A DNA stretch of 64,000 bases, from contig JADKGN010000001.1 in assembly GCA_016722705.1 (NCBI GenBank), forward strand, positions 512,744-576,743, in the 5' to 3' direction. Each line of letters starts with the position of its first letter. The first letter of the stretch is position 1. The DNA is from Candidatus Dechloromonas phosphoritropha. GTDB taxonomy: Bacteria; Pseudomonadota; Gammaproteobacteria; Burkholderiales; Rhodocyclaceae. Shown here piece after piece: positions 6,126-29,180 of this stretch. The notes under the pieces were generated by a model that was given only the letters and a program-made list of their open reading frames with translations, was not told the origin of the DNA and did not search any database. The position numbers and the translations under genes are program-made.

Positions 6126-7572
6126 CTCTCCGTCTTAACCACCCACGCAAATCCACCAACCCGTCCAGCCTGCGCAGGCTATACAAACTAGCCGCCAGCA
6201 TCACCACCAGCCCAACTGTATAACCCGCACCTGTCGATTGTCCTGCAACAAACATGATCCCCCCCCCCGCAAGCAAGAGAAGTAGCGTAACCATCGCATT
6301 GCGGCGTGCCAGCTTGTAACCAATCAGCCTCGATGCCACCAGCGCCACCAGCCCGTAATAGATCAGGTAGGCGATCCAGAAACCGACACCAGCCATGGCC
6401 AGCCCCCATTCCTGAATTCCCACGGCGATCACACCCAGGTAGGCAACATTCCAGGTAACGTCCGTGGCAATGAAAATGCCACCACGCCCCTGCGCGAGCA
6501 GAATAAACCCCATCGGCCAACTGGCCACCTTAAAAATATCCCCCAGCACTTGCCAGCGCAGCACATCAGCCGCCGGCGCAAAGCTGGCGGCATAGAGCAG
6601 GTGAATGACCCAGGGGGCAAGCGTGATCATGCCGAGTAAAACGGGACCGGCCAGCAGCAAGGCCATTTCGGCCTGCTCATCGACCAGCTTTCGTGCCTGC
6701 GGGTGGTCGTTGATGGTGGCCGTCAGGCGCGGGAAATAGTCGGCGCCCATCGCGCCAAGCACAAAACCGATGTAGGTCATCGAGACAGCCCAGGCCGCCT
6801 GGAAGTAACCGGCCGCATCCAGTCCGAGTTCGCGCAGGATGATCGAGCGCGCGGCAAGCTGGGTCGCCAAAGTGAGCAGGCCAGCCACCATCAGGGGAAT
6901 GCCAAATTTGAGCATCGCTTGCCATTGCTGGCTGATCGCCTGCCAGTCGCAGTGCATCTGCGGCCGTGTCAGGCGGGCAGCGTACCAGGCGGCAACCGGA
7001 ATGGTGACGGCCGGGGCCGCCAGCACAAACCAGAGCACGCCGGCCTCGCCGAGCCAATACACCAGCAGTATGCCGACGACGGCGCCAATCAAGGCGCTGA
7101 TGATGTTGATGCGCGCCAGCTCGCCGATGCGGCGCAATCCTTGCAGCAGCGCGGTTTGTGAACCGGCGATCAGGGTCAGCAGCACCCCCAGCCCGAGCCA
7201 GCCGACATCGCCGACATGGGTTGCATCGCCGAACACCCATTGTGCAACCGGTTCGCGCAGTAGCCACAGGAGCGCCATGCCGGCAAGGCCAAGGACCAGA
7301 TTGGCCAGCCAGAGCGCGCGGCGCACGATGGCGAGGGTGGCTTCTTCGCCTGCCGATGCAGCCAACTGTCTCACGCCGCTATTGCCCAGCCCGCACCCGG
7401 CCAGCGTCGAGGCCAGCCCGACGATGTTCTGGTACAAGCCCATCAGGCCAACGCCGGCCGGCCCGAGCAGCACCGCCAGCACTTTCACTTTGACGATGCC
7501 GATGACGATATTGATCACCGTGGCACCACCTATGATGGCGCTCGAACGGAAGATCTCGCGGTGGGATGTCAC
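6112..7572 (-). CDS. wzx: Wzx-type polysaccharide/O-antigen flippase (MOP superfamily)
   Basis: Multi-TM protein ...[39 protein letters not shown] start at 7572 overlaps the upstream stop (GTGA). The longer track ORF to 7926 overlaps the transaminase gene. Confidence 0.8.
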
Positions 7573-12048: not shown

Positions 12049-13263
12049 ATGACGAGTTTGCATCTGGAAGACCTGCGCAAGGACACGGCATATGCGCTGC
12101 TGCTTTCGTGTTGCCGGGTATACGCCAGCGCGGCGGACAGGTCTCTGCAACACCGCTTGGCCAAAGAACTCGACAACGAGCGTTTTCTCGCGCTGGCGGA
12201 ACGGCATCTTGTCGGTTCTCTGGTCTGGCACAACCTGAACCGGCATCCGCAAGGTACTTTCGATGCCGGGCTGATGGCGGCGCTATTGAGCAGCCATCGG
12301 CAGAACGTGATCAGCGAAATGGTGTCGGCGCACGCGGCGGTCAAGTTGCATCGCCTGCTGGCCGGGGCTGGACTCCCGCATTGCCTGCTCAAGGGCCTGG
12401 CCGTCGGGCAACGCTACTATGCCGCCCCGGGGCTGCGCGGAACCGGAGACATCGATCTGCTGGTCCCGCAGGCAAGCTTTGACGAGGTCAACCGGCTGTT
12501 GCTGAATGCTGGCTACGCCGCACCCAATCCGATCGATGCCCTGACGTCGCGGCAACGGCGCTATTTCATGTTTCAGCAGAACCAGGTCGAGTTCCAGGCA
12601 CCCGGCTCTGGTGTGATTATCGAACTTCACTGGCGACTGGATCAGGTGCCGTACACGCTGGCCGGCCTCGAGTCCGCGGCGCCGCTGGCGAAGGTGACAA
12701 TTGCGGATGCCAGGATTGCCTGTCTCGATGACGAGGAGATGTTGCTGCACCTGTGCGTGCATGGCGGCAAGCATGCGTGGTTTTGCCTGAAGTGGGTTTT
12801 TGATCTGCCCAATGTTCTGGAAAGCCGGGAATGGGATTGGCCGGCACTGCGGAAAAAAGCCAGGTCTTACCGCTGCGAGCATGCGCTGCTCCTCGGCTTG
12901 CTGGTCGCCGAGAAGCTCTGCGGCTGGGTTGTGCCGGCAACCGTTCGCCCCTGGCTTGAGCATCGGGGCGGCCTCGATCGTCATTTTGGCCTGATCGTCA
13001 AGGCCATAACGCATGCCGAAGGCTGGCTGAATTCGCCTGCCGGCATCGTGCAGCGCAACCTGTATGCCGCCAGCTTCAACGACGGGCTGGATTGCTGGAC
13101 CTATCAGCTGGCGACGGTGGCCACCCACCGCCGGGACTGGGAACTGCTGCCGCTGCCCGATGCGCTGTTTCCGCTGTATTTCGCGTTGAGCCCGTTTACC
13201 AACATCTGGCATCTCGCGCAGCGTTTTCGCCGGTTTGGGCAGGCGCCGGCGCGCCTGGTCTGA
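12049..13263 (+). CDS. NTP_transf_5 family nucleotidyltransferase
   Basis: LLKGLAVGQRYYAAPGLRGTGDIDLLV...IELHWRL...HLCVHGGKHAW. Confidence 0.75.
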   Translation: MTSLHLEDLRKDTAYALLLSCCRVYASAADRSLQHRLAKELDNERFLALAERHLVGSLVWHNLNRHPQGTFDAGLMAALLSSHRQNVISEMVSAHAAVKLHRLLAGAGLPHCLLKGLAVGQRYYAAPGLRGTGDIDLLVPQASFDEVNRLLLNAGYAAPNPIDALTSRQRRYFMFQQNQVEFQAPGSGVIIELHWRLDQVPYTLAGLESAAPLAKVTIADARIACLDDEEMLLHLCVHGGKHAWFCLKWVFDLPNVLESREWDWPALRKKARSYRCEHALLLGLLVAEKLCGWVVPATVRPWLEHRGGLDRHFGLIVKAITHAEGWLNSPAGIVQRNLYAASFNDGLDCWTYQLATVATHRRDWELLPLPDALFPLYFALSPFTNIWHLAQRFRRFGQAPARLV

Positions 13264-13265
13264 AG

Positions 13266-14087
13266 ATGATTGACCTCCACTGCCACCTACTGCCCGGTAT
13301 CGACGACGGCGCCCCGGACCTCGAGACTTCGCTCGAGATGGCGCGCATTGCGTTCGCCGATGGCATCCGAACGCTTGCCTGTACCCCGCATATCTACCCC
13401 GGAGTCTATGAGAACACCGGTGATGGCATCCGGCAGGCGGTGGCGGCGTTGCAGAAGGCCCTCGATGAGGCGGAAATCGCGCTGAAGCTGGTGGTCGGCG
13501 CCGATATCCATGTCGATCCCGACCTGTTGCTGAAGCTGCGCGGCGGCGAGGCACCAACCCTGGGGGAGACGCGGTATTTTCTGCTTGAGCCGCCACATCA
13601 TGTCGCGCTGCCACGTATTGCCGATTTCGTATTTAATCTGGTTGCTGCCGGTTACACTCCCCTGATCACGCACCCCGAGCGTTTGACCTGGATTAAGGAT
13701 CACTACCCAACCATATGCGGGCTGGTCGATCAGGGCGCCTGGCTGCAGGTGACGTCAGGCAGCCTGACTGGCCGCTTCGGGCCGCAGGCGAAATACTGGG
13801 GCGAGCGCCTGCTCGGCGAAGGTCGGGTTCATATTTTGGCCACGGATGCGCACGGCACCCGACGTCGCCCTCCGCTGCTCGCCGAAGGCCAGCTTGCCGC
13901 GGAGCGCCTGGTGGGCAAGGAAGAAGCATGGCATTTGGTTAACACCCGGCCAATCGGTATACTTGATAATTTGGCCCCGTCCGCAATGCCTGCCTTGCCG
14001 AATGCCGGCGCCAAATGGCGAGCAGACGGCTCAGCCAGGCGGCAAGGCTTATTGGCGAGGCTATTTGGCGGGAACAAGCCCCGTTAG
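13266..14087 (+). CDS. PHP-family protein-tyrosine phosphatase (CpsB/YwqE type)
   Basis: MIDLHCHLLPGIDDGAPD...CTPHI...THPER...ATDAHG. Confidence 0.85.
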   Translation: MIDLHCHLLPGIDDGAPDLETSLEMARIAFADGIRTLACTPHIYPGVYENTGDGIRQAVAALQKALDEAEIALKLVVGADIHVDPDLLLKLRGGEAPTLGETRYFLLEPPHHVALPRIADFVFNLVAAGYTPLITHPERLTWIKDHYPTICGLVDQGAWLQVTSGSLTGRFGPQAKYWGERLLGEGRVHILATDAHGTRRRPPLLAEGQLAAERLVGKEEAWHLVNTRPIGILDNLAPSAMPALPNAGAKWRADGSARRQGLLARLFGGNKPR

Positions 14088-14113
14088 CAGTCGTTGGGAA
14101 AAGGAGACTCGGC

Positions 14114-14857
14114 ATGCACGATTCGTCAATCAGGAAATCAGGGTTCTGGTGCGCTTTCGCCTGCCTGGTGTTGCTGATCGCTGCCCGGCCCACCTTTGCT
14201 GAAAGTCCGGCGCAGCCGATATCGGCGACACCAGCCCCGGTCGATAATGCTTTGTTGGAGCGCCAGTTGGCGCCCGCCTCGACGGAATTGGACGAATACC
14301 AGATCGGCCCGCACGACCTGATCGAAATTTCGGTGTTTCAGGTGACCGAGATGTCGCGGACGGTGCGTGTCAATGCCCAGGGATTGATCTCGCTGCCCTT
14401 GCTTGGCATCGTGCGCGCCGGCGGGCTGTCAGCCAACGAACTTGAAGCGACCCTTGCCGCCAAACTTTCGGAAAACCTGCTGCAGGATCCACAGGTAAGT
14501 GTTTTCATCAAGGAATTCGCCAGCCAGCGCGTCGTGGTCGAAGGCAGCATTGTGAAACTCGGCGTTTACCCGCTTACCGGCAAGACGACACTGATGCAGG
14601 TCATCGCCATGGCTTCCGGAATCGATCCCGTGGCCGACCCGACCAATATCCGGATATTCCGCCAGCTTCCCGACGGCAAGCGCGAGGTCTTGACCTATGA
14701 TCTGATTGCGATTCATGAGGGCAAGGCGGAAGACCCGTTGATCAAGGGCAATGACACGGTGATCGTCGGGCGCTCCGCTTCCGCGGCTTTTTTCAGGGAT
14801 TTCATCAACGGTGTCCGCGGTTTTGTGGGGTTCGGCACCATCCCCCTGGTTCATTGA
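14114..14857 (+). CDS. wza: Polysaccharide export outer-membrane protein (Poly_export + SLBB)
   Basis: Signal peptide, ...YQIGPHDLIEISVFQ...VNAQGLISLPLLG. AAGGAG RBS at 14101. Confidence 0.85.
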   Translation: MHDSSIRKSGFWCAFACLVLLIAARPTFAESPAQPISATPAPVDNALLERQLAPASTELDEYQIGPHDLIEISVFQVTEMSRTVRVNAQGLISLPLLGIVRAGGLSANELEATLAAKLSENLLQDPQVSVFIKEFASQRVVVEGSIVKLGVYPLTGKTTLMQVIAMASGIDPVADPTNIRIFRQLPDGKREVLTYDLIAIHEGKAEDPLIKGNDTVIVGRSASAAFFRDFINGVRGFVGFGTIPLVH

Positions 14858-14924
14858 TCCCTGATCAGCGGCGCGCATGGCAAAGTCACGCGATCGTGCT
14901 TTCTGATTTTCATCGGTCCGCACT

Positions 14925-17189
14925 GTGACAACTCCCTCAAACGACCCTTCCCGCAAGCCGGATCCTGCCGACGCCGAAGCCCACCCCGGTGGCGCGCTCA
15001 TTGAGCGGCCGAATTATCTGCCGAACACGGCTCTTTATCACGAACCGCTGCATATCGGAGCGGAAGAAGAGTCGATCAAGCTGCGCGAATACTGGGACAT
15101 CATCGTCAAGCGCAAATGGGCGGTGCTGACCTTTTTTGCGATCACGGTGATCGCCGTCATGACGGCTACATTCATCACGACCCGGATCTATCGTGCCACC
15201 CTGACGCTGCAGATCGAACAACAGGACACGAAGGCAATGGCCTTGCCGGGAGCACTTGCCAACGAGCAATTCGTTTTCGAGAGCCCCGAGTTTTTGCAGA
15301 CGCAATACGAATTGCTGAAAAGCGACACTCTGGCCCAGCGCGTGATCGAACAGTTGAACCTCGTCGCCGCGCCGCAACCGGAACAGAAGAGCCCGGGCTG
15401 GCTGGATACTCTCCTGGGGGACAACGCCAGGAAGACGGAAAATCCCGAGCCTGAAGCGGGCAACGGCCTGATGTCCGGATTACCCGGGGAACTGTCGGTC
15501 GTGCCGGTGCGTAATTCACGCTTGGTCAGGATCAATTTCGACAGCCCGGACCCGCAACTGGCGGCGCGCATCGCAAACACGATCGCGGTGGCGTTCATCA
15601 ACCTGAACCTGGAACGGCGTATGGAAGCGACTTCCTATGCGCGGACGTTCCTCGAGGAGCGTCTGCAGCAGATCAAGGTCAAGCTTGAGGATTCCGAAAA
15701 GCAACTCAATGCCTTCACGCGCCGGGAGGGCATCGTCAAGCCGGATGAAAAGCAGCAAAGCCCGGAGACGCAGGTGCTCGGCGAGTTCACCTCGGCGCTG
15801 GCCAAGGCCCAAAGCGAGCGCATCCGGGCCGAGACGCTCTACCAGCAGGCGCGCGGCGGCGATGCGGCAAGCGCTGCGGCGGTGGTGGACAATGCGCTGG
15901 TCCAGGAATACAAGACGCGCAAGTCGAAGCTGGAGGGCGACTATCAGGAAGGCTTGAAGACCTACAAGCCCGGTTACCCGAAGATGCAGCAGATCGAAAG
16001 CCAGATCGACGAGTTGCAGGCCAAGATCAACCAGGAGATCAAGGCGACCATCGGCGCGCTCAAGGCAAACTACGACGCCGCGCTCGCCCAGGAAAACCTG
16101 CTGGCGGCAAAGCTGAAGGAAAGCAAGCAGACCGTTCTGGGCGGCCAGGACAGCAACTTCCAGTACAACCTGCTGAAGCGCGAGGTGGATACCAACCGCC
16201 AGCTTTACGACAGCCTGCTGCAGCGCTACAAGGAAATCGGCGTCGCCGGCGGAGTCGGCACCAACAACGTTACCGTGGTCGACATGGCAAAGGTGCCCGG
16301 CTTTCCGTTCAAACCGCGACTGACGTTCAACCTGATGATCGCCCTCTTCATCGGCCTCGCCGGTGGCATTGCTCTCGCCCTGCTGCTGGAACACCTGGAC
16401 GATACGATCAAACTGCCGGATGACATGGAAAAATTTCTCGGCCTGCCGGTACTTGGCATCATCCCGGCGACCAAGCGCGCCGACAACGCAGAACTGGCGC
16501 TGGCCGAAAATGCCGACCAGCGTTCGGCGTTTGCCGAGGCATACCGTTCGTTGCGCACGGCCCTGCAGTTCGCGACGCCTGAAGGGATGCCCAAGGTGCT
16601 GCTGCTGACCAGCACCACGGTCGGCGAAGGCAAGAGCACCTGCGCCCTCAGCCTGGCGATGCATATCGCACAGACCGGCAAAACGGTGTTGCTGATCGAC
16701 AGCGACCTGCGCAAGGCATCCCTGCATACCAAGCTTGGCATTGTCAACGATTCGGGCCTGACCAACTACCTGGCCGGCAACGCCCAGCCGGTCGACATCA
16801 CGCGCCAGACCGAAATTCCCCGCCTGTTCCTGATGTCTTCCGGCCCCCTGCCGCCGAATCCGGCGGAATTGATCAGCAGCGTCAAGATGGTGGCGCTCCT
16901 GAAACTCGCCACCGAGAAATTCGACCAGGTAATCATCGACGGGCCGCCGGTACTTGGCCTGGCCGATGCTCCCCTGCTCGGCAGCCTGGCCGAAGCAACC
17001 GTGCTGGTCGTGGGCTATGGTACGACCAGCCGCCAGTTTGCGCAGACTTCGGTCAAGCGCCTGCGCGGTACGCGCACCCGGCTCATCGGCGGCATCCTCA
17101 ATCGGGTCAGCAGCGGGCACCGCTCCTACGGCTATAACAGCTACTACTATCAGTACGGCGAGCCGGATCAAAAACAACTGTCGGCATGA
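14925..17189 (+). CDS. wzc: Polysaccharide co-polymerase / tyrosine autokinase
   Basis: Wzz-like N-domain, coiled coil, P-loop TSTTVGEGKST and Tyr-rich tail YGYNSYYYQYG. Confidence 0.9.
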   Translation: MTTPSNDPSRKPDPADAEAHPGGALIERPNYLPNTALYHEPLHIGAEEESIKLREYWDIIVKRKWAVLTFFAITVIAVMTATFITTRIYRATLTLQIEQQDTKAMALPGALANEQFVFESPEFLQTQYELLKSDTLAQRVIEQLNLVAAPQPEQKSPGWLDTLLGDNARKTENPEPEAGNGLMSGLPGELSVVPVRNSRLVRINFDSPDPQLAARIANTIAVAFINLNLERRMEATSYARTFLEERLQQIKVKLEDSEKQLNAFTRREGIVKPDEKQQSPETQVLGEFTSALAKAQSERIRAETLYQQARGGDAASAAAVVDNALVQEYKTRKSKLEGDYQEGLKTYKPGYPKMQQIESQIDELQAKINQEIKATIGALKANYDAALAQENLLAAKLKESKQTVLGGQDSNFQYNLLKREVDTNRQLYDSLLQRYKEIGVAGGVGTNNVTVVDMAKVPGFPFKPRLTFNLMIALFIGLAGGIALALLLEHLDDTIKLPDDMEKFLGLPVLGIIPATKRADNAELALAENADQRSAFAEAYRSLRTALQFATPEGMPKVLLLTSTTVGEGKSTCALSLAMHIAQTGKTVLLIDSDLRKASLHTKLGIVNDSGLTNYLAGNAQPVDITRQTEIPRLFLMSSGPLPPNPAELISSVKMVALLKLATEKFDQVIIDGPPVLGLADAPLLGSLAEATVLVVGYGTTSRQFAQTSVKRLRGTRTRLIGGILNRVSSGHRSYGYNSYYYQYGEPDQKQLSA

Positions 17190-18583
17190 GCGGTAACAGC
17201 ACGGATTCGGGTTCTGACTGCATAGCGCTGGCAATTGCCTTTTTTCAGGCGCCGAGCCAGTTTCCCGAGCTGCTGCGCGGCGAAGGCCGTTTGCCGCGCG
17301 GCGTCAACGAGTTGCTTCTGGTTGCCGCCGGCAATCCACGCGCCGCCGGCGAAAAACCACTTACCCCTTTCGTGCACCCAGAAAAATTGCGGGAGACGGC
17401 CAAATTCTTCATCGAGCAGGTCTTGCTGGCGCATCACGCGAGTCACTATCGCGTTTTTGGCGTCGAGCCCGATGCGTCGCTGGCAGAGATCAAGGACAAC
17501 CACCGTCTCCTGATGCGGCTCTTCCACCCGGACCGCCAAACCACCGAGGCCGACGGCGCCACCGCAATCGCGACCCGGATCAATCAGGCGTATACCGTCC
17601 TCCGCTCTCCCGATGCACGCGCCGCTTATGACTTTTCATTGCAGCAAAAGCACGCAACCGCAAGGAAAAACCCCACCTATCATCCGCTGCCCAGCCACGC
17701 GACCGCACCATCGGGAAGGGCATTTACTCTCCCGCTCTTCGTTTCCCGCCACTTGGCGCCGGTTGTCCTCGGCAGCTTCGCGTTCGTGGCCGCCCTCGGC
17801 GTTGCCCTGGTTTATTTCAATCGCGTGCCAGCGAGCGCGCCCGGCACCGGCGAGCGCGCGTATAAGCTCAAGCCGGAAATGGCGCTGGCCAGGCCGGAAC
17901 CGGCAGCAATGCCGCTCGAGCCGCCAGCGCAGTATCTGCGGTCAGAAGCTTCCACCCGGCCACACGAGCCGCCGGCCAGCATTGCGGGCGTCATGGACCA
18001 GCCAGTTGAGACAGCGCCGACGTCGCCGCCCGACCGACAGCCGATGCCGGCCAACGACTATAAGCAACCCCGGAGCGAGCCAGTCCGGGCGCCCTCCCCG
18101 GCGCCACCGTTGGCGATGCCCGGAGCTAAGCCGGTGCTGGCCGCAACGACGAAGCCGGAGCGAATCGTGGCGACTGTTGCGGTCAACCCGCCAGAGGCAC
18201 CGGAAACGAAGCCGCCACAGCCCCGACCCCAGCAACTCGAGAGCCTGATCGCCAGTTTTTCCGAGCGCTATCAGCAGGGCGATCTCGAGGGCCTGCTGGC
18301 GCTGTTCGACGACGCCGCGCGCATCGACCGGGGGGGAGACAAGGCACAAATCCGCAACGAATATGGCGACCTGTTCCGCAATTCGGAAACGCGAACGATG
18401 TATATCTGGGACATGTCCTGGAATCCCCGGGGCAAGGCCGTGCGCGGCAACGGTCATTATCAGTCGCGCGCGATCGGCAAAGCCGACCGCTCGCCAAGGA
18501 TTTACGGCGGCGATATCACGATCGACGTCCTGCAGCTGGACGACAGGCCGGTGATCGTCGGGCTGTATCGCCGAGGCAACTAA
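17186..18583 (+). CDS. J-domain membrane protein with Pro-rich linker and NTF2/SnoaL-like C-terminal domain
   Basis: HYRVFGVEPDASLAEIKDNHRLLMRLFHPDR. One TM segment. ATGA overlap with the wzc stop. Confidence 0.65.
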   Translation: MSGNSTDSGSDCIALAIAFFQAPSQFPELLRGEGRLPRGVNELLLVAAGNPRAAGEKPLTPFVHPEKLRETAKFFIEQVLLAHHASHYRVFGVEPDASLAEIKDNHRLLMRLFHPDRQTTEADGATAIATRINQAYTVLRSPDARAAYDFSLQQKHATARKNPTYHPLPSHATAPSGRAFTLPLFVSRHLAPVVLGSFAFVAALGVALVYFNRVPASAPGTGERAYKLKPEMALARPEPAAMPLEPPAQYLRSEASTRPHEPPASIAGVMDQPVETAPTSPPDRQPMPANDYKQPRSEPVRAPSPAPPLAMPGAKPVLAATTKPERIVATVAVNPPEAPETKPPQPRPQQLESLIASFSERYQQGDLEGLLALFDDAARIDRGGDKAQIRNEYGDLFRNSETRTMYIWDMSWNPRGKAVRGNGHYQSRAIGKADRSPRIYGGDITIDVLQLDDRPVIVGLYRRGN

Positions 18584-20306
18584 CCCGGATGTTTCATAAA
18601 CCCGCCGCGCGATGTCAATGTCGTGCCATTCCAGCCGTGATGCGAGTCAGCTTGCTGCGAATTTTGCTGCCAACCCGCCACGATCGGCCAAATACCCCAA
18701 CTTTTGGGCATCACACCCTGCCGCCATCGATCCCTGGACAGAGCGCTGGCGAGACCTCACCTCCGCTCAAGCGGATTCGAGTCGGCAGCATGAGACGGCG
18801 TCGCCGAGTCGATCAGGCCGGTGCCGGCGGGCGCGGGACGAGGTAAAGCAACTCGGTCACCCGCGCCAGCACCCCCTTCATCGGACACGACGTAGGCAAG
18901 GACAGCTTGATCCGATCCTTGTACTGCACCACGCGCACCGCCAACTTAAAGAGTTTCAGGATAATCGACAGCGGTTGCGCCTTGGCCAGTTCCGTATGCA
19001 CCAGCGTGTTCTCGCGCAAGCCGTGAATCAACCCATACGCCGCACACGAATAGAACAGCCGCAGGTGATTGGCGAGGAAGGCATGATCGGAGGTCCGGTC
19101 ACTGGCCAAGTCGTTCTTCACCGCCTTGATGAAGTTCTCGTCCTGCCCTCGAGCACAGTACAGCTCTTTGTAAAGCACATCAGGCGTCGGGTCGGACAGC
19201 GAGGTCACCACGTACCGCGGGTTGTCACCCAAGGCCATCACCTCGGCCTTGACCACCACGCGGTAAGCCTTGGGCCACGAGCCCGCCTGATACTCGATAT
19301 CGTCGTACAGTCGTGTCGCCGCAGGCTCGGCGTTCCCCAGGCGCTGGGCGTTGGCGCTGTGTGTCTGGTGCAGCGCACGGGCTTTCTTCAGCAGCGGCTC
19401 GGCCTTGGGCGAGAGCACCTGGTTGCCGGCCAGGCCGAAGAGGAAGTCCAGATGCGGATCGGACGCGCACAAGGCCATCAGTTCGGGATTCGAGAAGTGG
19501 CCATCCCCGCGCAGAATGATGTGGGTCTCGGGCCAGGCCTGGCGGAGCAGGTGCAGCACGCGCTTGATGATGACCGCATTCTCTTTACCGGTGGGACGCT
19601 TGCCCGGACGCAGGACGGCGGTGATCAGCTTCCCGGAGAGTCCTTCGAAGAGGAACAACGGCAGGTAGCAATGATTGCCGTAGTGGTGGTTGTAGAACGC
19701 CAGTTCCTGCTGCCCGTGAGTGGCATCCTCAGAGTGATCCATATCCAGCACGATCACGGCAGGCGCTTGGGCGTAGCTGGCGATGAAGGCGTCGACGAAG
19801 CTTTTGGCCAGGCGGTAAATGTCTTTGCGCGATACGCTGTTCTCGAGCCGGGAGAGCGTGGGGCCGGAGGCCAGGTCATTTCCCTCGCCCAGCGGGGCAC
19901 GACCGACCGCCAGTTTGAACAGCGGATCGCGCCGCAGCGTGTTGGCGTCATTACCGTCGGCGTAGCCGCTGGCGGTCTGGAATATCCGCTGACGAAGCAG
20001 GTCGGCCAGCGGATGGTCAATGTACGAGGCGTGGCGTTTGTCGTGAATCGCGCTGACCAGGCGGGGAATCAGGCCGATTTGCAGGTCGATGCCACGCAAC
20101 AGGAGTGCGCCAAAGTCGGAGGACATCGCCCCGCCGTCAAACTCTGCCCGGATCGTAAATCCGGCGCTGGCGGGAAAGCGAAGCTGGGTTGGGATAGAAT
20201 GGTCCATGGGCGGTCTCGTTTAGGCTTCTTACAAAGCGTTATTGGCGTAACCCCTATTATATCAATGGGTTAAACGAGATTCGCCTGCTTTTATGAAAAA
20301 TTCGGG
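18584..20306 (-). mobile_element. IS1380-family insertion sequence
   Basis: IRs CCCGGATGTTTCATAAA and TTTATGAAAAATTCGGG. 4-bp duplication CTAA at 18580-18583 and 20307-20310. Confidence 0.85.
18813..20207 (-). CDS. IS1380-family transposase
   Basis: 464 aa ...FDGGAMSSDFGALLLRGIDLQIGL...YNHHYGNHCYLPLF. Confidence 0.9.
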   Translation of the reverse strand: MDHSIPTQLRFPASAGFTIRAEFDGGAMSSDFGALLLRGIDLQIGLIPRLVSAIHDKRHASYIDHPLADLLRQRIFQTASGYADGNDANTLRRDPLFKLAVGRAPLGEGNDLASGPTLSRLENSVSRKDIYRLAKSFVDAFIASYAQAPAVIVLDMDHSEDATHGQQELAFYNHHYGNHCYLPLFLFEGLSGKLITAVLRPGKRPTGKENAVIIKRVLHLLRQAWPETHIILRGDGHFSNPELMALCASDPHLDFLFGLAGNQVLSPKAEPLLKKARALHQTHSANAQRLGNAEPAATRLYDDIEYQAGSWPKAYRVVVKAEVMALGDNPRYVVTSLSDPTPDVLYKELYCARGQDENFIKAVKNDLASDRTSDHAFLANHLRLFYSCAAYGLIHGLRENTLVHTELAKAQPLSIILKLFKLAVRVVQYKDRIKLSLPTSCPMKGVLARVTELLYLVPRPPAPA

Positions 20307-20328: not shown

Positions 20329-20601
20329 TCAAACCTTGAGCACCAAGCCTCGTTCAGCCAGTTCCCCGGCCAGTTTGATGACATCACCCTGCAATTGCTC
20401 GGCCGTGACTTCGTACTCTTCGAGCATCGTTGCGCTGATTTCCGCCAGCGTCCTGCCCTCGCCCATCAGTTCCCAGATACGTGCGCCGACCGGGTCCAGC
20501 CCGAAGTAGCTGCCGCCTGCCAGGTCGAGGATCACGATCTCTTCACCGACCTCACGTGCCATGACCTGGACCGGGATCGTTACCTTGTCCGTCAATTCCA
20601 T
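20329..20601 (-). CDS. PqqD-family peptide-binding protein (lasso B1 / RRE)
   Basis: MELTDKV...EIVILDLAGGSYFGLDPVGARIWELMGEGRTLAEI. AGGGAG RBS 7 nt upstream. Confidence 0.8.
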   Translation of the reverse strand: MELTDKVTIPVQVMAREVGEEIVILDLAGGSYFGLDPVGARIWELMGEGRTLAEISATMLEEYEVTAEQLQGDVIKLAGELAERGLVLKV

Positions 20602-20611
20602 CAATTGCTCC

Positions 20612-21460
20612 CTAAATTTCAGCCTGTTCGAGAATGGCCCGGCGCACCGCCGGCAACGCGGCGAACGATCTTGGATAATCAAGTCGGAAAACGATCGGCA
20701 AATTGGCCATCTCCGTCACCTGGTTGAAATGGGCTGACAACGACTCCCGGCCTTCAATATCGAGCAGGAAGGAATTACCCACCAGCCCCATCACGGCTTC
20801 GCCCGGCGTCATCGGCGCAAAGCTTACCTGATCGACATCGCCCGGGCCGAGGAAATACATGCGCCGCAGCATTCGCTCTTCGGAGCAAAACGCCAGCGCT
20901 TCGCCGGAAAGCAACCGCGCCTTGGAAGTGTATTGGACGGCGGGCGCCAGATGCGCGTCGTCGCCCACCAGTTCGTCCCTGCTGTCGTCCCACAGGCGGA
21001 TCGACGGATGACTGGGCTGGACCGCATAGCCACCGGCTTTGGGTTCAAGCAACAGGGCATCGTCGGCCAGGAAGCGGTGACCAGCCAAGGCGAAACTTGC
21101 CGCCAGCGTCGACTTGCCACGCCCCGATTCGCCAAGAAACGCCAGCGCACCCGCTGGAGCCTCGATGGCACTGGCATGAAACACCCGCTTGCCCTGCCGG
21201 CTCAACGCCAGTGGCAGCACCTGATTGAGATAGAGGTGCCTGATGGTCTCTTCGGAGATACCGGGAACTGGCCACGATGACACGACTTGACCATCCGCTG
21301 AAACTTCGAAATCCGCAAGTTCGGGAAAGCGCAGCAAATAGCCTGACCCGGTCCGATAGAAACGCGTCCACAGCGTCCCGTCCGGAAAAATCCACTCGTG
21401 GAAAAAAGCCGACTCAAGCGGCTCCTGCGGGGGAACATCCGCCAGATGAAAGTCGATCAC
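20612..21460 (-). CDS. HprK-related P-loop kinase
   Basis: GESGRGKSTLAASFALAGHRFLADD. GTG start overlaps the methyltransferase stop (GTGA). Confidence 0.8.
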   Translation of the reverse strand: MIDFHLADVPPQEPLESAFFHEWIFPDGTLWTRFYRTGSGYLLRFPELADFEVSADGQVVSSWPVPGISEETIRHLYLNQVLPLALSRQGKRVFHASAIEAPAGALAFLGESGRGKSTLAASFALAGHRFLADDALLLEPKAGGYAVQPSHPSIRLWDDSRDELVGDDAHLAPAVQYTSKARLLSGEALAFCSEERMLRRMYFLGPGDVDQVSFAPMTPGEAVMGLVGNSFLLDIEGRESLSAHFNQVTEMANLPIVFRLDYPRSFAALPAVRRAILEQAEI

Positions 21461-22578
21461 GACTCGGAATCCCTGCCCAGAACCTTGGCGACAAAACGCG
21501 AAATCTCCTCGGGCGAGGGAAAGAGATCGGGATGATCGCGCAAAACGGCGGCTTCGATCTGCGCGACCGTCCGCTGGCCATCGCAGTACACAAGGATCGT
21601 CGCGGTCGCCCTCCCCGTCTGGCCAAGCCGCGGCACGCGCTCGGGGTTAGCCTGCAGCAACTGCTCCGGTGTCAATAACTCGCCTTGCCACGTCGACTGC
21701 GCGAAGCGCCGTCCGGTCGCCGGAAACTCGACGACCCAGGCAATTAGATGATCGGCCGGCCGGGCCATGATTGTTGCCTTCACCCGCTCGCCCGCCTTGA
21801 CCGCAACGGCCTCATCGATGGGCAAGAAGGCCTGGTTGCGCTGGATGGCTGGTTCCGCCAACGGCGAATTGGTCATCCACACCCCTTCGGCCAGCTCACA
21901 CTCGAACCAGCCGCCCAGGCCATGCATCAACCCATCACGCTCGATATGCAGCTCAGCGTTCCACGAGAAGAAATCCGGATGATTCGCATAAAGGTCAATA
22001 TCGCCCAGCACAGCCGGCGCACAAAACACGTCGGTGCGTTCCAGACTGACGGCATGTCTGGTGTTAACCGCATGCTTACGCAGCCAGTGGAAGACTTGAG
22101 GAATGTTTTCTGCCTGCCAGGCGTTGGCCAGTTCGTCGCAGCGCTGCGAACCGACTGCCGCGACGTTCAGCCGAATTCGCGAAGGGATGAGCTTGCCGCC
22201 GGGTTTGAGAAAGCGCTTCCTGGCGTCTTCAAGAAACCCGACGATACCGTAATCGAAGCCGAAATAGCCGACATGATCGCAGATGACCACGTCCACCCGT
22301 TCCGGCAACTCGATCTGGCTCGACTTGCCGCGAATGAAGGTGGCGCGCTCACCCTGCCCGGCCCGCTGCAACGAATCGCGGGCCACGTCGGTCATGGCAC
22401 TATCGTCGATGGCGAAGACATGCCGGGCGCCAGCGTGCAGACACAAGAAGCCCAACACACCGGAACCACAGCCCAAGTCGGCAACGACATCGCCGGCCGC
22501 TAGCAACTTTCCTATGGCTGATTGATAGCGCTCAAGCCTGACTGCATCGGCGACATAGCCTAAGTGCTCTTCCAGCAT
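21457..22578 (-). CDS. Class I SAM methyltransferase, PRMT-like core with C-terminal PqqD-like segment
   Basis: VVADLGCGSGVLG...FAIDDS...VDVVICDHVGYFGFDYG...FLKPGGKLIP. The tail ATILVYCDGQRTVAQIEAAVL resembles PqqD helices. Confidence 0.7.
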   Translation of the reverse strand: MLEEHLGYVADAVRLERYQSAIGKLLAAGDVVADLGCGSGVLGFLCLHAGARHVFAIDDSAMTDVARDSLQRAGQGERATFIRGKSSQIELPERVDVVICDHVGYFGFDYGIVGFLEDARKRFLKPGGKLIPSRIRLNVAAVGSQRCDELANAWQAENIPQVFHWLRKHAVNTRHAVSLERTDVFCAPAVLGDIDLYANHPDFFSWNAELHIERDGLMHGLGGWFECELAEGVWMTNSPLAEPAIQRNQAFLPIDEAVAVKAGERVKATIMARPADHLIAWVVEFPATGRRFAQSTWQGELLTPEQLLQANPERVPRLGQTGRATATILVYCDGQRTVAQIEAAVLRDHPDLFPSPEEISRFVAKVLGRDSES

Positions 22579-22920: not shown

Positions 22921-23073
22921 TTACGGCTTCCTTCTCTGGGCAGTCATCATTGCCCCTTCGGTACTTGACCCCGCTCCCCCTTGAGTCAAAAAACGCACAT
23001 CGCCATGACGAACGAGCTTTGGCGAGGCGTAAGGTTTTTTCAGTTTTTGCTTTGGGAACGGAAAATCCGTCAT
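22921..23073 (-). CDS. Lasso peptide precursor A2 (50 aa)
   Basis: Hand translation: MTDFPFPKQKLKKPYASPKLVRHGDVRFLTQ/GGAGSSTEGAMMTAQRRKP. Leader fits YxxPxLxxxGxxxxxTx. Core has Gly1 and Glu8. Confidence 0.8.
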   Translation of the reverse strand: MTDFPFPKQKLKKPYASPKLVRHGDVRFLTQGGAGSSTEGAMMTAQRRKP

Positions 23074-23077
23074 ACCG

Positions 23078-23230
23078 TTATGCCTTCCTGGACCTCCACT
23101 TCATACTAGTGGTTTCTGAGGTCCCCTTTGACCCCGATTGAGTCAGACTGCGTACATCACCGTGGCAAACGAGATTGGGTGGGGCGTAAGGCTTTTTAGC
23201 GTCCTTTTTCGGCAAGAACTTGTCGGTCAT
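23078..23230 (-). CDS. Lasso peptide precursor A1 (50 aa)
   Basis: Hand translation: MTDKFLPKKDAKKPYAPPNLVCHGDVRSLTQ/SGSKGTSETTSMKWRSRKA. Same leader motif. Core has Ser1 and Glu8. Confidence 0.8.
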   Translation of the reverse strand: MTDKFLPKKDAKKPYAPPNLVCHGDVRSLTQSGSKGTSETTSMKWRSRKA

Positions 23231-23235: not shown

Positions 23236-25164
23236 TCACTCACTTTTTGACGGAAAAAACGCGGGATGCACATCGACCCAGCGTGCAAGAACTGCCATTG
23301 TAAACAATTGATACCCATTTTCATACTCCGCGCCCCGTTCATGCACTGCCCACGCCCGAATAAGGCGCTCTCGGTCAACCCACGTGTTCAACCTGCCCGC
23401 GAGATACTCGTGATTCCAAATCTCGGGCCGCGATTCAGCAGTTGCTGAAATCAGTTGTTCATAGGCCTTCCAGCCCGGATGACTGCCCACGTCGCAGCGC
23501 AGGCGAACAGTCTCCGGCAGCACGTCGGCGGTTGCTTCACGCATGAGATTCTTGTACCAGGGCACGCTTAGCTTTGCCGCGACCGGCATCTGGATGGCAA
23601 ACTCGATCATCCGGCGATCGGAAAATGGACTGCGCGGCTCCACCCCGCTGGCGAAGGCGAGTTGTCCATACACTTCATGGGCAAAGGAAAGCAGCCCCGA
23701 CGTAAAGCTCCGCGCATGAGTGGCCTGATCGTTGCCGGGCTTTATTGCCACCTCTCCCTGACACGCCTGGCGATGCTTCTCGGCGAGCCAGGGAATGACT
23801 TTATCGCGCTTCAACAGGGCGAGATCGTCGTGCAGCACCCGCCGCTTTTCGCGGAGTCGCCGATAGATAGTGCGCACGCCGGGCGGCGTGATGGCGGCGA
23901 GTGATCGAATCATTACCGTGCGGGTGCGGTTTTCGAAACCGTGCCTGCCGAAAGCAGTAAAAACATCCGGCAGGCGGCCCAGCATCTTTCCGCGCAGAAT
24001 GGTATCGAGACTGCGGTCAACGCCGTAAAACAGTAAATCTCCGGCCATGCCGTCGAGCACCACGCGACAACCTTGGCTCTGCCCGGCTTCATAGACCATG
24101 GCATAGGTCAGCCCGTGCGATAGCGCGAAGGGTTCATCGATCCTAGCGATATTGTCCAGACTGGCCTTGCCGCCTTCTCCCGCGACTGCCGAAGTGAGAA
24201 CGACCGGGTCGATCCAGCCATCCTTCATCATCTCCTGTATGTGCTGCCAGTCCTTGCAGTTTTCCCGGTCTTCGCGGATCAGTGAGATGGTTTTCAGCGG
24301 CTGTTGCAGGTCGCCGCGAAATTCCTTGCGGATCAGGCCGACGATGGAGGACGAATCGAGCCCGCCGCTAAGCATGGCGCCGACCGGGCCGTTACTGCGC
24401 AGGCGGCATTTCACGGCAACGCGCATTTGATCGAGAAAGGCTTCGGCACACTCTTCCAGCGAGGAGAACTTGTTGACCGGCAGATTGCCCGGCTCCCAAT
24501 AGCGCCAGGTCTTCACCCCTTGCGCGGAAACCTCGATGGCGTGCCCCGCCGGCAGACGGACGATATCCTGATAGAAGGTTCCGATCTGGTCATCGCGGTC
24601 GTATGCCTCGACAAGGTAATCGAGTACGCGCGACTCGTTCAGACGGGCGGCGATCAGGCCGGTGGCCAGCAGGCCCTTGATCTCCGAGGCAAAGCCGAAC
24701 CAGCCCCGGCCGGCGTGATAGTAGAAATGCCGGGTCCCCGCCGCATCGCGCGCGCCGAACAGGCTGCGCCGCCGCTCGTCCCAGATGAAGAAGGCGAATT
24801 CGCCGATGATGCGGTCGGGACATTGCGCCCCCCAAACCTCATAAGCGCGCAACACCAGTTCGGCATCGGTGCGGTCACGCAGGACAGCCCCGCGCCCGAG
24901 CAGCTCGTGCCGGAGATCATCGCCGTTGTCCACCCGCCCATCCATCACCAGCACGATACTTGTATCTTCGTTGGCGAGGGGCTGACATTCGTCCATAGAC
25001 TCGAGCGTCGTACGAAACATGCACTGCCCTAAGGCAACCTGGCCTTTGTGCCAATGGTGAATGCCATCCGGCCCGCGCTGCACCATGGCAGTCGTCATCT
25101 TTTCGATCGAACCAGGTTCAATTGGCGCACCATCGAAGCGGATGATGCCGGCAATGCCGCTCAT
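23236..25164 (-). CDS. Asparagine-synthetase-like lasso cyclase (C protein)
   Basis: AsnB fold with the SGGLDSS PP-loop. N-terminus is MSGIAGI, so the catalytic Cys of true AsnB is replaced by Ser. Confidence 0.8.
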   Translation of the reverse strand: MSGIAGIIRFDGAPIEPGSIEKMTTAMVQRGPDGIHHWHKGQVALGQCMFRTTLESMDECQPLANEDTSIVLVMDGRVDNGDDLRHELLGRGAVLRDRTDAELVLRAYEVWGAQCPDRIIGEFAFFIWDERRRSLFGARDAAGTRHFYYHAGRGWFGFASEIKGLLATGLIAARLNESRVLDYLVEAYDRDDQIGTFYQDIVRLPAGHAIEVSAQGVKTWRYWEPGNLPVNKFSSLEECAEAFLDQMRVAVKCRLRSNGPVGAMLSGGLDSSSIVGLIRKEFRGDLQQPLKTISLIREDRENCKDWQHIQEMMKDGWIDPVVLTSAVAGEGGKASLDNIARIDEPFALSHGLTYAMVYEAGQSQGCRVVLDGMAGDLLFYGVDRSLDTILRGKMLGRLPDVFTAFGRHGFENRTRTVMIRSLAAITPPGVRTIYRRLREKRRVLHDDLALLKRDKVIPWLAEKHRQACQGEVAIKPGNDQATHARSFTSGLLSFAHEVYGQLAFASGVEPRSPFSDRRMIEFAIQMPVAAKLSVPWYKNLMREATADVLPETVRLRCDVGSHPGWKAYEQLISATAESRPEIWNHEYLAGRLNTWVDRERLIRAWAVHERGAEYENGYQLFTMAVLARWVDVHPAFFPSKSE

Positions 25165-25200: not shown

Positions 25201-25605
25201 TTATCGGGTCGCAATTCTTTTCACCAGTTCCAAATACTGTTCCAGCACGCTGTCCGTAGTCAGTAAATAAGCCGGGAGGGATTGCGCTTGAGCGACGAAC
25301 AGCCGGTCAAACGGGTCGCGGTGATGCCAAGACATTTGCGCAATGGCATAACTGTGACTTGCTGCAACGGGCAATTCGGTAAAGCCGGTTTGTAACGCCA
25401 GTTGGTGGATGTCCTCAGGGAGAAAGTTGAAATAATCGCGCCCCAGAGAGGGCTCGATTGCAATTTCCCACAGGCTGGCGGCGCTGAAATAGACGATGGT
25501 TCGCGGGTCTTGCAGCAGAGATTGAGTCTCCGGCGGCAACACCTCGGGCTTGATGAGCGCTGCCAGCAATACCTTGGTATCGAGCAGCCATTTTTGCCTG
25601 GGCAT
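25201..25605 (-). CDS. vapC: PIN-domain toxin (VapC family)
   Basis: 134 aa ...LLDTKVLL...SLWEIAI...HRDPFDRL. Confidence 0.85.
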   Translation of the reverse strand: MPRQKWLLDTKVLLAALIKPEVLPPETQSLLQDPRTIVYFSAASLWEIAIEPSLGRDYFNFLPEDIHQLALQTGFTELPVAASHSYAIAQMSWHHRDPFDRLFVAQAQSLPAYLLTTDSVLEQYLELVKRIATR

Positions 25606-25607: not shown

Positions 25608-25850
25608 TCAGGCGTCTCCTTCAAACATGCGCTGAATGGCTTCATTGTGCAGGCTGGAAAAGTTTTCCGGCAGGTTGAATTTACCCTTTCCCAGACCCAG
25701 TGTGCACGGCTTGATCTCGGTTTCGGCTAACGCAACCAGGCGTGCAACGGGTTCCCCGGAACGGGCGATAACGATTTCTTCGCCAGCCGCGGCTTGATCG
25801 ACAAAACGCGAAAGATGGGTTTTTGCTTCGTGAATGTTGACGGTTTGCAT
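25608..25850 (-). CDS. Phd/YefM-family antitoxin
   Basis: MQTVNIHEAKTHLSRFVDQAAAGEEIVIARSGEPVARLV. Confidence 0.85.
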   Translation of the reverse strand: MQTVNIHEAKTHLSRFVDQAAAGEEIVIARSGEPVARLVALAETEIKPCTLGLGKGKFNLPENFSSLHNEAIQRMFEGDA

Positions 25851-25987: not shown

Positions 25988-26452
25988 TCATGAGAACTGA
26001 CTCGTCGAAACGGGTTTATCGAAGGTGGCATACCGTATGGCAATGTCAGGCACGTCGTTGATTGGCTGGCCCGCGATCTCCACCCAGGCGTGCGCGGCGA
26101 ACTCACCGTTCTCGCAGCGAACGCCGATGCGCAGATCGCTGGTCGTGCCGTAAAAACGCAGTAGCCAGCGCAGCAACAGCGAACGCGTCAGGCAACTGGT
26201 CGCCCCTAAAACACGGTTCGCCGCACGGTTAACCGCTAGCCCCAGCGCGGCAGCCTCCGCTTGGCTCAACGGCGGGCGCCGGGCAAGTGGGAAGTGATCG
26301 AGCCAAGCCTGGAAACGCTGCAAGCCGGCCAGGCGCAGGCCCAACCAGAAGAGCGGCAGCAACACCAGCGAAGCCAGCAGCACCCATTGCTCGCGTCCGG
26401 AGAGCGCACGGTAGGTGGAGAAATAATGGGTAAAGGTGGGCATCGCGATCAT
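25988..26452 (-). CDS. Lasso peptide B2 protease (transglutaminase-like)
   Basis: ...ATSCLTRSLLLRWLLRFYG...FAAHAWVEIAGQPIND (Cys/His/Asp). Confidence 0.85.
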   Translation of the reverse strand: MIAMPTFTHYFSTYRALSGREQWVLLASLVLLPLFWLGLRLAGLQRFQAWLDHFPLARRPPLSQAEAAALGLAVNRAANRVLGATSCLTRSLLLRWLLRFYGTTSDLRIGVRCENGEFAAHAWVEIAGQPINDVPDIAIRYATFDKPVSTSQFS

Positions 26453-26639: not shown

Positions 26640-27095
26640 TCACCACCACGATAACAACGCGTGAGCAAGATGGATGTCAGCGCGTGCCAGGCATCCACCA
26701 GACGGCAGTGAAGAAGCAGCGTGACAACTAGCTTGACAAACAACGGCGTTGGCATCGTTCAATCCCCAGACGCCTCCATGACGGCAAAGATATGCTAAAA
26801 GAATGTCGATCATGGCGGCCCGTGTGCATCCGGGACGCAGAATATCCCCGTGCAGGTCGATATCGAGCCCGTTCCGGATCAGGCAGGCTTCATGGCTGGC
26901 GACTTCGGGATTGACGACGAGCTTGAATCCAGGCGTTTCCTTGGCGTCGACCGCAGCAAGCCGCGGTTCCGGGGCGATGGGGATGTCGATGTCCGAGGCG
27001 GCTCTCAATGCAGGGTCGGCATAGACGGGTTCTCTGACATAGGCACCCTTGATGACCGCGTAGCGGATGCCTTTTGCCTCGATCGGCGCTGCCAC
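26640..27095 (-). pseudogene. NTP_transf_5 nucleotidyltransferase, central fragment only
   Basis: IRYAVIKG...ASDIDIPI...DIDLHGD...LLAYLCRHGG aligns to the middle of 12049-13263. About 90 N-terminal and about 150 C-terminal residues are absent. Confidence 0.6.
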
Positions 27096-27132: not shown

Positions 27133-28815
27133 TCATTGCGTTGCAAGATGCGTCCCTCTCGCAATCGGCTGCGTGTCGTCGGCGATCCCTCCAGCCACCA
27201 TGCGTACGATTCGATCCGCCAGCGCCAGGCTGGCCGGACGATGCGTGATGAGGATCACCGTCCTCTTGCTCAGCGCGTGATGACAGTCTTCGATGAATGA
27301 TCTTTCGCCCTGCGGGTCGAACATTGCCGTGGCTTCATCGAGTATGAGTATTGGCGCATCCTTGAGCAGGGCACGCGCCAGAGCAATGCGCTGACGCTGA
27401 CCGCCCGACAGCTTGACGCCCTGATCGCCAATCATCGTGTCATACCCCTGCGGCAGGCGGCTAATGAAATCGTGCGCCTGGGCCGTTCTGGCAGCCCTCT
27501 CAATCGCTGCATGGTCGGCATCGAAGCGGCCATAGCCAATGTTGTCGCGCACGCTCCCGTTGAACAGCAGCACATGCTGCGGAACAATGCCGATCTGGCT
27601 GCGCAGGCTACGCAGGCTGACGCCCGCAATGTCGATGCCGTCGATCAATATCTGCCCGCCATCCGGCTCGTGAAGTCGCATCAGCAGATGGACGATCGTG
27701 CTTTTCCCGGCACCGTTTTCGCCGGTAAGGGCCACCGTTTCTCCGGCACGAATGTGCAGGTCGATGGCTTGCAGCGCCGGAGCGCGTCCGGGGTAGGCGA
27801 AGGTAACATCACGAAACTCGATTTCGCCGAGCACCGCCGGTAGTACCCGGTCACCGTGAAATATCGGCTCGGGAGATTCGTTGAGGACGCTCTGCAGTCG
27901 TTTCAGGGTCCCGCGCGCCTGTTGCGTCTGGCCGTAAATGCTGGCCAGCGCACTGACCGGGCGCGTCAGGAGCGCGGCGTAGAGCAGGAAGCTGACCAGT
28001 TCCGCCGGCGTCATGCTGCCGTCACCAACCCGCTCGCTCGCCAGCCAAAGGATGAGCAACACCGCGGAAGCGGCAACGAACTGTATGGAAGGCTCGAGCG
28101 CGGCGTGGATTTTATGCTCGGTCATGCTGAGGTGAAAGATACGCAGAATCTGCTTGCGATAGCGTTGTGATTCCTCTGGCTCGCGCGTAAAGGTCTTGAT
28201 CGCCGGCAACATGCCGAGATTTTCCTCGGCGATGCCAACGGCGGCGGCATGTTCCGCCTGCAACTGGCTGGCAAGCGGACGCAACCGGCGCCCGATGATC
28301 TTGAGCAGCAGATAGAACAAGGGAATCAGTACGGCGATCATGACGCCAAGCAGCAGATCGGTACGGAACAGGACGAATACCGCACCGGCCACTGTCAGCA
28401 ACTGCGGAATCATCTGCAACAATGTGCCGGTGATGAAACCGGACAGTTGGGCAGCCTCGAAAGTAAGCATGGCCAGAATGTCGCCCTGGCGCCGTTGATG
28501 ATAGAAAGCGAGCGGCAAGGCCTGCAGGTGATCATAAATACGAACACGCAAATCCGCCAGAATCCGTTCGCTGGTGCTGCCCAACAGATAAGCGTTGGCA
28601 AACTTGAGTAGCGCCTGCACGGCAAAGAGCGCGAGCAGGATCAGTAATATTGGACCGACGTTGGCTTGGCTGCCCGCCAGCAAATCGCCAGCGAAACGAC
28701 CTCCCAGCCAGGGTATGGCCAGCACCGTCGCGGTTTCGATCAGCATCAGGATGCCGGCAAGGGCGAGACTGACTCGATATGGCGCGGCGTAACCCAGGAG
28801 CAAGCGTAAATTCAT
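27133..28815 (-). CDS. ABC exporter, fused permease/ATPase (McjD-like role inferred)
   Basis: Six-TM domain plus GENGAGKST, LSGGQRQR and ILILDEAT. It ends soon after GTH, so it may be 3'-truncated. Confidence 0.85.
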   Translation of the reverse strand: MNLRLLLGYAAPYRVSLALAGILMLIETATVLAIPWLGGRFAGDLLAGSQANVGPILLILLALFAVQALLKFANAYLLGSTSERILADLRVRIYDHLQALPLAFYHQRRQGDILAMLTFEAAQLSGFITGTLLQMIPQLLTVAGAVFVLFRTDLLLGVMIAVLIPLFYLLLKIIGRRLRPLASQLQAEHAAAVGIAEENLGMLPAIKTFTREPEESQRYRKQILRIFHLSMTEHKIHAALEPSIQFVAASAVLLILWLASERVGDGSMTPAELVSFLLYAALLTRPVSALASIYGQTQQARGTLKRLQSVLNESPEPIFHGDRVLPAVLGEIEFRDVTFAYPGRAPALQAIDLHIRAGETVALTGENGAGKSTIVHLLMRLHEPDGGQILIDGIDIAGVSLRSLRSQIGIVPQHVLLFNGSVRDNIGYGRFDADHAAIERAARTAQAHDFISRLPQGYDTMIGDQGVKLSGGQRQRIALARALLKDAPILILDEATAMFDPQGERSFIEDCHHALSKRTVILITHRPASLALADRIVRMVAGGIADDTQPIARGTHLATQ

Positions 28816-29180
28816 GGCTTCGGAGGGTATCTGAAAAACAGCGACGAAAAAATGGTCCTGAAACCACATCCGCACGGTTGAGGAATTGCCCGGCTATGCC
28901 GATATGTCAACGACCATGATATCCATGCACGTGCCCAACCGGGGCAGGCGTGGGCTGGTCTTGCCTGTCGACCGCATGCAGTCGTCGTTACGCAGCGTTT
29001 CAACCATTGTTCACGATGCGGCGCGCTGGGGCGCGGTAAGCAGGTTTGTCGCGGTCGTCCGTGAAAAAGGGACAAAATTGGTGGCGTGGTTGTGCTGCCG
29101 CTTTCACAATGGCGGCATGGTCGTATAACCGGATTTGCGCAGCCTTTCGTCTGCCTTGAATACACGCCAGAGAATGCCCG

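Follow-up and report, generated by a model that had tools for sequence, protein, structure and literature searches.

The window, the 64-kb stretch of Candidatus Dechloromonas phosphoritropha DNA analysed here, carries on its minus strand a predicted lasso peptide cluster in the order D, a fragment of an N gene, B2, C, A1, A2, a methyltransferase gene, a kinase gene and B1, with a toxin-antitoxin pair inserted between B2 and C. Nothing that a split-B lasso pathway requires is lacking: A, B1, B2, C and D are all present, full length and co-directional. D (27133..28875, minus strand) is an ABC exporter with ABC_membrane and ABC_tran domains. B2 (25988..26452, minus strand; 154 aa) is a transglutaminase-like leader peptidase that scores 83.2 bits against NF033537 (lasso_biosyn_B2; cutoff 33) and matches Transglut_core3. 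B1 (20329..20601, minus strand; 90 aa from the ATG at 20601) is a PqqD-like RiPP recognition element (Pfam PqqD, 4.3e-20) and is the last gene of the cluster, past the methyltransferase and kinase genes. The original prediction mentions neither this placement nor the insert between B2 and C.

The lasso cyclase C (23236..25164, minus strand; 642 aa from the ATG at 25164) contains Asn_synthase and GATase_6/7 domains, and its best NCBIfam match is the lasso cyclase model NF033535, at 420.7 bits and below the cutoff of 525. The protein begins with MSGIAG. Glutamine-hydrolysing Asn synthetases carry their catalytic Cys nucleophile at this N-terminal position, and the Ser found there fits a cyclase rather than an amidotransferase.

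Two small open reading frames follow the cyclase gene. A1 (23230..23078, minus strand) extends from an ATG at 23230 to a TAA at 23080..23078, and A2 (23073..22921, minus strand) from an ATG at 23073 to a TAA at 22923..22921; their translations are MTDKFLPKKDAKKPYAPPNLVCHGDVRSLTQSGSKGTSETTSMKWRSRKA and MTDFPFPKQKLKKPYASPKLVRHGDVRFLTQGGAGSSTEGAMMTAQRRKP, respectively. Each has 50 codons, corresponding to a predicted leader of 31 aa and a predicted core of 19 aa (SGSKGTSETTSMKWRSRKA for A1 and GGAGSSTEGAMMTAQRRKP for A2). The original prediction had translated both frames by hand, and we reproduced these translations letter for letter. It had also described the two genes as a tandem pair directly downstream of the cyclase, and this is how they lie: A1 is co-directional with the cyclase gene and begins 5 nt past its stop codon (TGA, 23238..23236), and A2 follows A1 after a spacer of only 4 nt (23077..23074). 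The AGGAAGG motif proposed as a Shine-Dalgarno (SD)-like signal for the second gene is read at 23089..23083 (minus strand), within the last codons of A1 and 9 nt upstream of the A2 ATG.

Both leaders contain Y(-17)xxP(-14)xL(-12), G(-8) and T(-2), that is, Y15, P18, L20, G24 and T30. The claimed fit to the lasso leader consensus, with Thr at -2, is therefore borne out, and the positions agree with those published, where YxxPxL occupies -17 to -12 and Thr(-2) is a recognition element (PMC10368454). The cores likewise have the composition that had been described for them. Position 1 is a small residue, Ser1 in A1 and Gly1 in A2; Glu8 is the sole acidic residue of each core and hence the only possible ring acceptor; and an 11-residue cationic tail comes after it, ending in RSRKA in A1 and in QRRKP in A2. 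A1 has Ser3; A2 has Ala3 and, further on, Ser5, Ser6 and Thr7. The mature products would have monoisotopic masses of 2066.033 Da (A1) and 1873.889 Da (A2), and predicted net charges of about +4 and about +2. A2 is separated from the methyltransferase gene by 342 nt, in which a third precursor was sought and no leader-like frame was found; nor does this spacer resemble, at the DNA level, the corresponding spacers of three related loci (L003, L005 and L006).

A1 and A2 are paralogs whose leaders are conserved and whose cores have diverged, as had been proposed: identity is 68% in the leader and 26% in the core. The leaders have 21 residues in common, and for 11 of these the codons differ between the two genes; the last 20 leader codons comprise 9 that are identical, 7 with synonymous changes and 4 with non-synonymous changes.

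Related loci were collected from the contigs of methyltransferase homologs, of which there are more than 1200 at 64-94% identity in wastewater-type Proteobacteria, and diverged copies of the whole cluster were recovered. An absence of similar small ORFs from homologous clusters had been named as grounds for abandoning the lasso assignment; what we found is the opposite, since one to four such ORFs occur at the equivalent place. Locus L005, whose methyltransferase is 89% identical, has four precursor genes, and L006 and L007, with methyltransferases 76% identical, have one each, overlapping the cyclase stop codon. An alignment of the peptides from the related loci with three further peptides (P0145-P0147) has invariant Y, P, L, G and LTQ positions and a nearly invariant Glu8. 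Glu8 is found in all of the further relatives (P0145-P0147 and L131/L132), and in 10 of 10 close betaproteobacterial relatives.

The codon pattern seen between the paralogs is repeated between orthologs. When the last 20 leader codons are scored as identical, synonymous or non-synonymous, the counts are 9, 9 and 2 for A1 and L006; 7, 9 and 4 for A1 and the L005b precursor; and 12, 7 and 1 for A2 and L005c. The cores of the same pairs are almost wholly replaced, Glu8 excepted. Such a pattern is expected of translated RiPP precursors, and the codon comparisons show purifying selection on the leader in the A1 and A2 reading frame.

The leader motif is not confined to these close relatives. A degenerate nucleotide pattern encoding Y-x-x-P-x-L-[VI]-x-[HYF]-G-x-[VI]-x-x-L-T-Q was run against one genome per species, and at least 120 stretches matched, spread over Acidobacteriota, Nitrospira, Chloroflexota, Betaproteobacteria and other groups. 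Among the matches listed, 105 of 120 peptides have Asp or Glu at core position 7-9, compared with 2-5% at other core positions, and in 58 of the 105 the first acidic residue is at position 8. Nearly all of the listed peptides (114 of 120) are in loci of at most 8 kb that encode a homolog of at least one cluster enzyme. An HPr-kinase-like protein is present in 91 of 118 leader-motif loci among the matches listed, and a methyltransferase of the type described below in 68 of 118, across phyla.

The two accessory enzymes are encoded downstream of the precursor genes, with the methyltransferase stop codon overlapping the kinase start by 4 nt. The SAM methyltransferase (21457..22578, minus strand; 373 aa) finds PRMT6, CARM1, PRMT1 and PRMT8 in phmmer searches at about 2e-23. 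Its AF2 model (pLDDT 82) matches PRMT6, PRMT1 and CARM1 in Foldseek at about 1e-26, with TM scores of 0.74-0.80 over about 315 residues. Sequence and model together indicate a homolog of the type-I protein arginine methyltransferases (PRMTs), with a predicted Rossmann domain and beta-barrel of the PRMT fold and an extra helical C-terminal domain of about 75 aa. The conserved loops are CDHVGYFGFDYG and HSTW. The double-E loop retains two acidic residues, here Asp101 and Asp109 (D/E in distant homologs), and the THW loop of PRMTs is replaced by (H)STW/L/F in the enzyme and its homologs.

A natural suggestion would be that the enzyme methylates core arginines; however, we reject this as its general role, for the acidic loop is conserved where the cores lack Arg and Lys. 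Clusters with 55-59% identical methyltransferases include Arg-free cores (L013 and L104), and methyltransferase clusters of Acidobacteriota and Nitrospira have cores that are free of both Arg and Lys and end in Cys-Leu. Because some cognate cores lack both residues, the general target of the enzyme is not deducible from sequence. For the Dechloromonas cluster itself, N-methylation of Arg or Lys side chains is possible, and attractive given the Arg/Lys-rich ends of both tails. We also considered whether the C-terminal domain of the methyltransferase is a PqqD-like recognition element, and this was not supported: the match to TIGR03859 has an E-value of 0.048 and there is no Pfam match, hhalign against a B1 alignment gave an E-value of 0.018 over only 23 columns, and the AF2 model of the domain is all-helical, with no Foldseek match at 0.001 or below.

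The Acidobacteriota and Nitrospira clusters form a distinctive set, with methyltransferases at about 37% identity and 38 peptides. Their cores are short, rich in Met and Gly, and almost always end in Cys-Leu (L011, L016, L017, L027-L029, L032, L043, L057, L058, L068 and others). Among the matches listed, the Cys-Leu C-terminus occurs in no methyltransferase-free locus.

The kinase-like protein K (20612..21460, minus strand; 282 aa) is an HPr-kinase-like P-loop protein with the Walker A sequence GESGRGKST. It scores 50.5 bits against TIGR04352 (HprK_rel_A), below the cutoff of 200, and matches Hpr_kinase_C weakly; a sequence search of the PDB returned only marginal HPrK matches (E 0.29).

Taken together, these properties make it very probable that A1 and A2 are a paralogous pair of precursor genes in a lasso cluster with split B proteins, and are matured by established lasso biochemistry. 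By analogy with characterised systems, the PqqD-like B1 would bind the YxxPxL leader, and B2 would cut after Gln(-1), using Thr(-2). The cyclase would then activate the Glu8 side chain and join it to the alpha-amine of Ser1 in A1 or Gly1 in A2, giving an 8-residue macrolactam threaded by the 11-residue cationic tail, although sequence cannot separate a threaded product from a branched-cyclic one; D would export the product. The predicted cleavage after Gln31 and the predicted residue 1-Glu8 macrolactam are well founded, because the Glu8 or acidic-residue pattern is family-wide and the leader positions are those published. More speculatively, K and the methyltransferase might modify the linear precursors before the leader is removed. 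The two peptides have all of the testable defining features of lasso precursors, with the exception that A1 misses the cutoff of the curated HMM. That score counts against the lasso precursor reading, as do the weak SD sequence of A1 (GAGTGA), the disturbances of the cluster described below and the region downstream of A2, where no terminator-like site was found and the 96-nt fold is not significant (z-score -0.84).

There are signs that the cluster has been disturbed, and these raise the question of whether it still functions. One scenario is that the precursor genes are real and the cluster is a cryptic or inactivated relic, from which this strain makes no lasso peptide. Between B2 and C lies a type II toxin-antitoxin pair, a Phd antitoxin (25850..25608, minus strand; Pfam PhdYeFM_antitox) followed by a PIN toxin (25605..25201, minus strand; Pfam PIN), which breaks the B2-C junction that in L006 and L007 is a 4-nt overlap without an insert. 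A DDE transposase of an insertion sequence (18813..20207, minus strand; 464 aa; DDE_Tnp_1_4, 3.6e-150) adjoins B1, between it and a gene for a DnaJ-domain protein; it is absent at the corresponding position in L003-L007 and is not part of the lasso pathway. In addition, the NTP_transf_5 nucleotidyltransferase next to D (26640..27095, minus strand) is truncated to 151 aa and covers only profile positions 68-162 of 249, and is the remnant of an N gene whose full-length homologs have 404-418 aa. Despite these disturbances, none of the essential ORFs (A, B1, B2, C and D) is shortened, and each has the same length as its relatives; intergenic insertions need not abolish expression, and the arrangement is identical in three independent assemblies, in which the A1-A2 DNA is 100% identical. 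Elsewhere in the window there is a possible N gene, a full-length NTP_transf_5 gene (12049..13263, plus strand; 404 aa; Pfam 9.5e-51) about 7 kb beyond B1 and past a conserved polysaccharide-export module, as is the case in L004-L007. On balance we consider an inactivated cluster unlikely.

Another scenario concerns A1 alone, and draws on its history of annotation. A2 is not new: MAGs of Candidatus Dechloromonas phosphoritropha have an exact match to it at NCBI (MBL0351638.1 and MBP8788387.1), under the name "lasso RiPP family leader peptide-containing protein", and gene calls on the same contig include it. A1 is absent from those gene calls; its exact sequence was not found in a collection of 15 billion proteins; and among the consecutive NCBI accession numbers, which end in 36 (K), 37 (the methyltransferase), 38 (A2) and 42 (B2), there is no number for it. 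Thus, the description of the two genes as unannotated holds for A1, which is newly recognised here, and fails for A2, which was already annotated. Both peptides align over the leader to NF033521 (lasso_leader_L3) and NF033528 (lasso_cyano). Against NF033521, with a cutoff of 19 bits, A2 scores 21.4 and A1 16.2, and A1 was evidently left uncalled because of this sub-cutoff score; against NF033528 both are below the cutoff, A1 with 23 bits.

It could be argued from these data that only A2 is functional, and that A1 is a decaying duplicate that is untranslated or unprocessed; A1 was never called as a gene, it falls under the NF033521 cutoff, and its SD sequence is weaker than the GAGGGA of its ortholog L005b. 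What speaks against decay is the state of the gene itself. The ATG and stop codon of A1 are intact; all of the invariant family positions are retained (Y15, P18, L20, G24, L29, T30, Q31 and E39); and the position of A1 just past the cyclase stop makes translational coupling possible. Moreover, the 'LVCHGDVR' leader type of A1 is also that of the first gene after the cyclase in L005, L006 and L007, and matches P0145-P0147, with mostly synonymous change. We therefore regard a decaying A1 as improbable, more so than an inactivated cluster. Finally, the idea that A1 and A2 are chance ORFs with a fortuitous motif, which has only their small size in its favor, is effectively refuted by two matches to the strict motif Y..P.L...G.....T. 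in a six-frame translation of the 64-kb window (0.07 expected, mean of 100 shuffles), by the synonymous-dominated leader divergence of the paralogous ORFs, by their conserved position across genomes and by the match to a curated HMM.

If A1 and A2 are lasso precursors, as we favor, they are ordinary members of a known peptide class, and of the systems characterised so far, the bsf cluster of Bradymonas sediminis FA350 (BsfA/B1/B2/C/D/K/N; PMC10368454) is the nearest. The two clusters share split B1 and B2 proteins, a cyclase, an ABC exporter, an HPr-kinase-like K and an NTP_transf-type N gene, as well as YxxPxL at -17 to -12, a predicted ring from residue 1 to an acidic residue at position 8, and Ser3 in the case of A1. 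The Bsf kinase requires B1 and modifies the linear precursor at the ring residue Ser3 (PMC10368454). The Dechloromonas cluster differs in having Thr(-2) rather than Ile(-2), Glu rather than Asp as the predicted ring acceptor, and two precursors plus a methyltransferase, in contrast to the one precursor and no methyltransferase of bsf; furthermore, A2 has Ala3.

Other tailored lasso peptides are less similar. In paeninodin, ThcoK and SyanK lassos and in pseudomycoidin, kinases phosphorylate a C-terminal Ser (PMC8498205). As in the paeninodin type, an HPr-kinase homolog, sometimes with a nucleotidyltransferase, is encoded with A, B1, B2, C and D; however, neither Dechloromonas core ends in Ser, the last residue being Ala in A1 and Pro in A2, and the C-terminal Ser substrate is thus absent. 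A SAM methyltransferase is also encoded within lasso clusters of the lassomycin type, where StspM is an O-methyltransferase of the C-terminal carboxylate that acts on the linear precursor (PMC8498205). Unlike StspM, the Dechloromonas enzyme has the predicted type-I PRMT fold. The cores of the members of the NF033521 and NF033528 models are unrelated to those of A1 and A2. Microcin J25 has a Gly1-Glu8 ring, and caulonodin clusters have several tandem precursors, some with Ser1 or Ala1; in both kinds of cluster the B protein is fused, neither is known to encode a kinase or a methyltransferase, and their cores have no known similarity to A1 or A2.

A different precursor organization is found in sister clusters, whose precursors have 115-136 aa: the lasso leader is the same, the core has Glu8 and about 19-22 aa, and a Peptidase_S74 tail comes after it. 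Examples are L003:6287-6697, 6728-7129 and ~2928 (Dechloromonas CP059264.1) and L010:5164-5568, and others are present in L013, L025, L030, L048, L091, L100, L104, L113 and L133. Peptidase_S74 is the intramolecular-chaperone autoprotease domain of phage tailspikes. The tail follows the core directly, with the sequence S-[DE]-R-x-x-K-[EQ]-N-[IV]...GLYLFDY, and passes the Pfam Peptidase_S74 model with 26-31 bits (cutoff 22), profile position 1 being the Ser right after the core. The A1 and A2 peptides end where this Ser would be. In L113 the Ser is replaced by Cys. A search for a decayed S74 domain by tblastn gave no match to S74 domains anywhere in the window, and nothing was found in the literature searched on lasso precursors fused to a self-cleaving domain.

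These observations permit a broader proposal, namely that A1 and A2 represent an experimentally uncharacterised subfamily of lasso peptides that spans phyla. A PRMT-fold methyltransferase and an HPr-kinase-like enzyme, which are not known to have been described together for any RiPP, would both tailor its linear precursors, and the short Dechloromonas precursors would be evolutionary truncations of S74-fused ones, with self-cleavage of the latter giving the same C-terminus. We hold this proposal tentatively, as a real possibility that we do not yet favor. The literature searched yielded no paper that connects Dechloromonas, arginine-methyltransferase-like enzymes or S74 domains with lasso peptides.

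In themselves, A1 and A2 add two new lasso cores, one of them from an unannotated gene, in an uncultured polyphosphate-accumulating bacterium of wastewater plants, which is useful for annotation and natural-product mining and is not surprising. The wider value is in the context, that is, a leader family that is detectable by a simple DNA pattern (at least 120 matches) and linked to an HPr-kinase-like protein and a PRMT-fold methyltransferase. The unusual parts are these two accessory proteins and the S74-fused precursors of relatives, and they provide testable entry points to new RiPP tailoring chemistry.

Several features of the homologous clusters are of interest apart from the precursors of the window. 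In L005, one of the four precursor genes is upstream of the cyclase (L005:356-3272). Its core, GGAGSVVEGMAMISMTRRP, resembles the A2 core yet stands behind a different leader, which suggests that cores are shuffled between leader types. Locus L008 (5420-7586) looks like a degraded cluster copy: the gene calls fuse B2 to the cyclase in a single protein and divide the cyclase into pieces of 551 and 139 aa, and the 52-aa precursor has a core without an acidic residue. Toxin-antitoxin insertion into these lasso clusters seems to be recurrent, because homologous clusters have other pairs at other places: in L003 and L004 a Polbeta/HepT pair precedes the methyltransferase, and L010 contains MazE/Fic. 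Finally, a convergent block on the plus strand of the window (12049-18583) encodes NTP_transf_5, CpsB/CapC, a Wza-like Poly_export protein, a Wzz/GNVR tyrosine-kinase-like protein and the DnaJ-domain protein. Because the same block flanks the cluster in L003-L007, its association with the lasso cluster may be more than local synteny.
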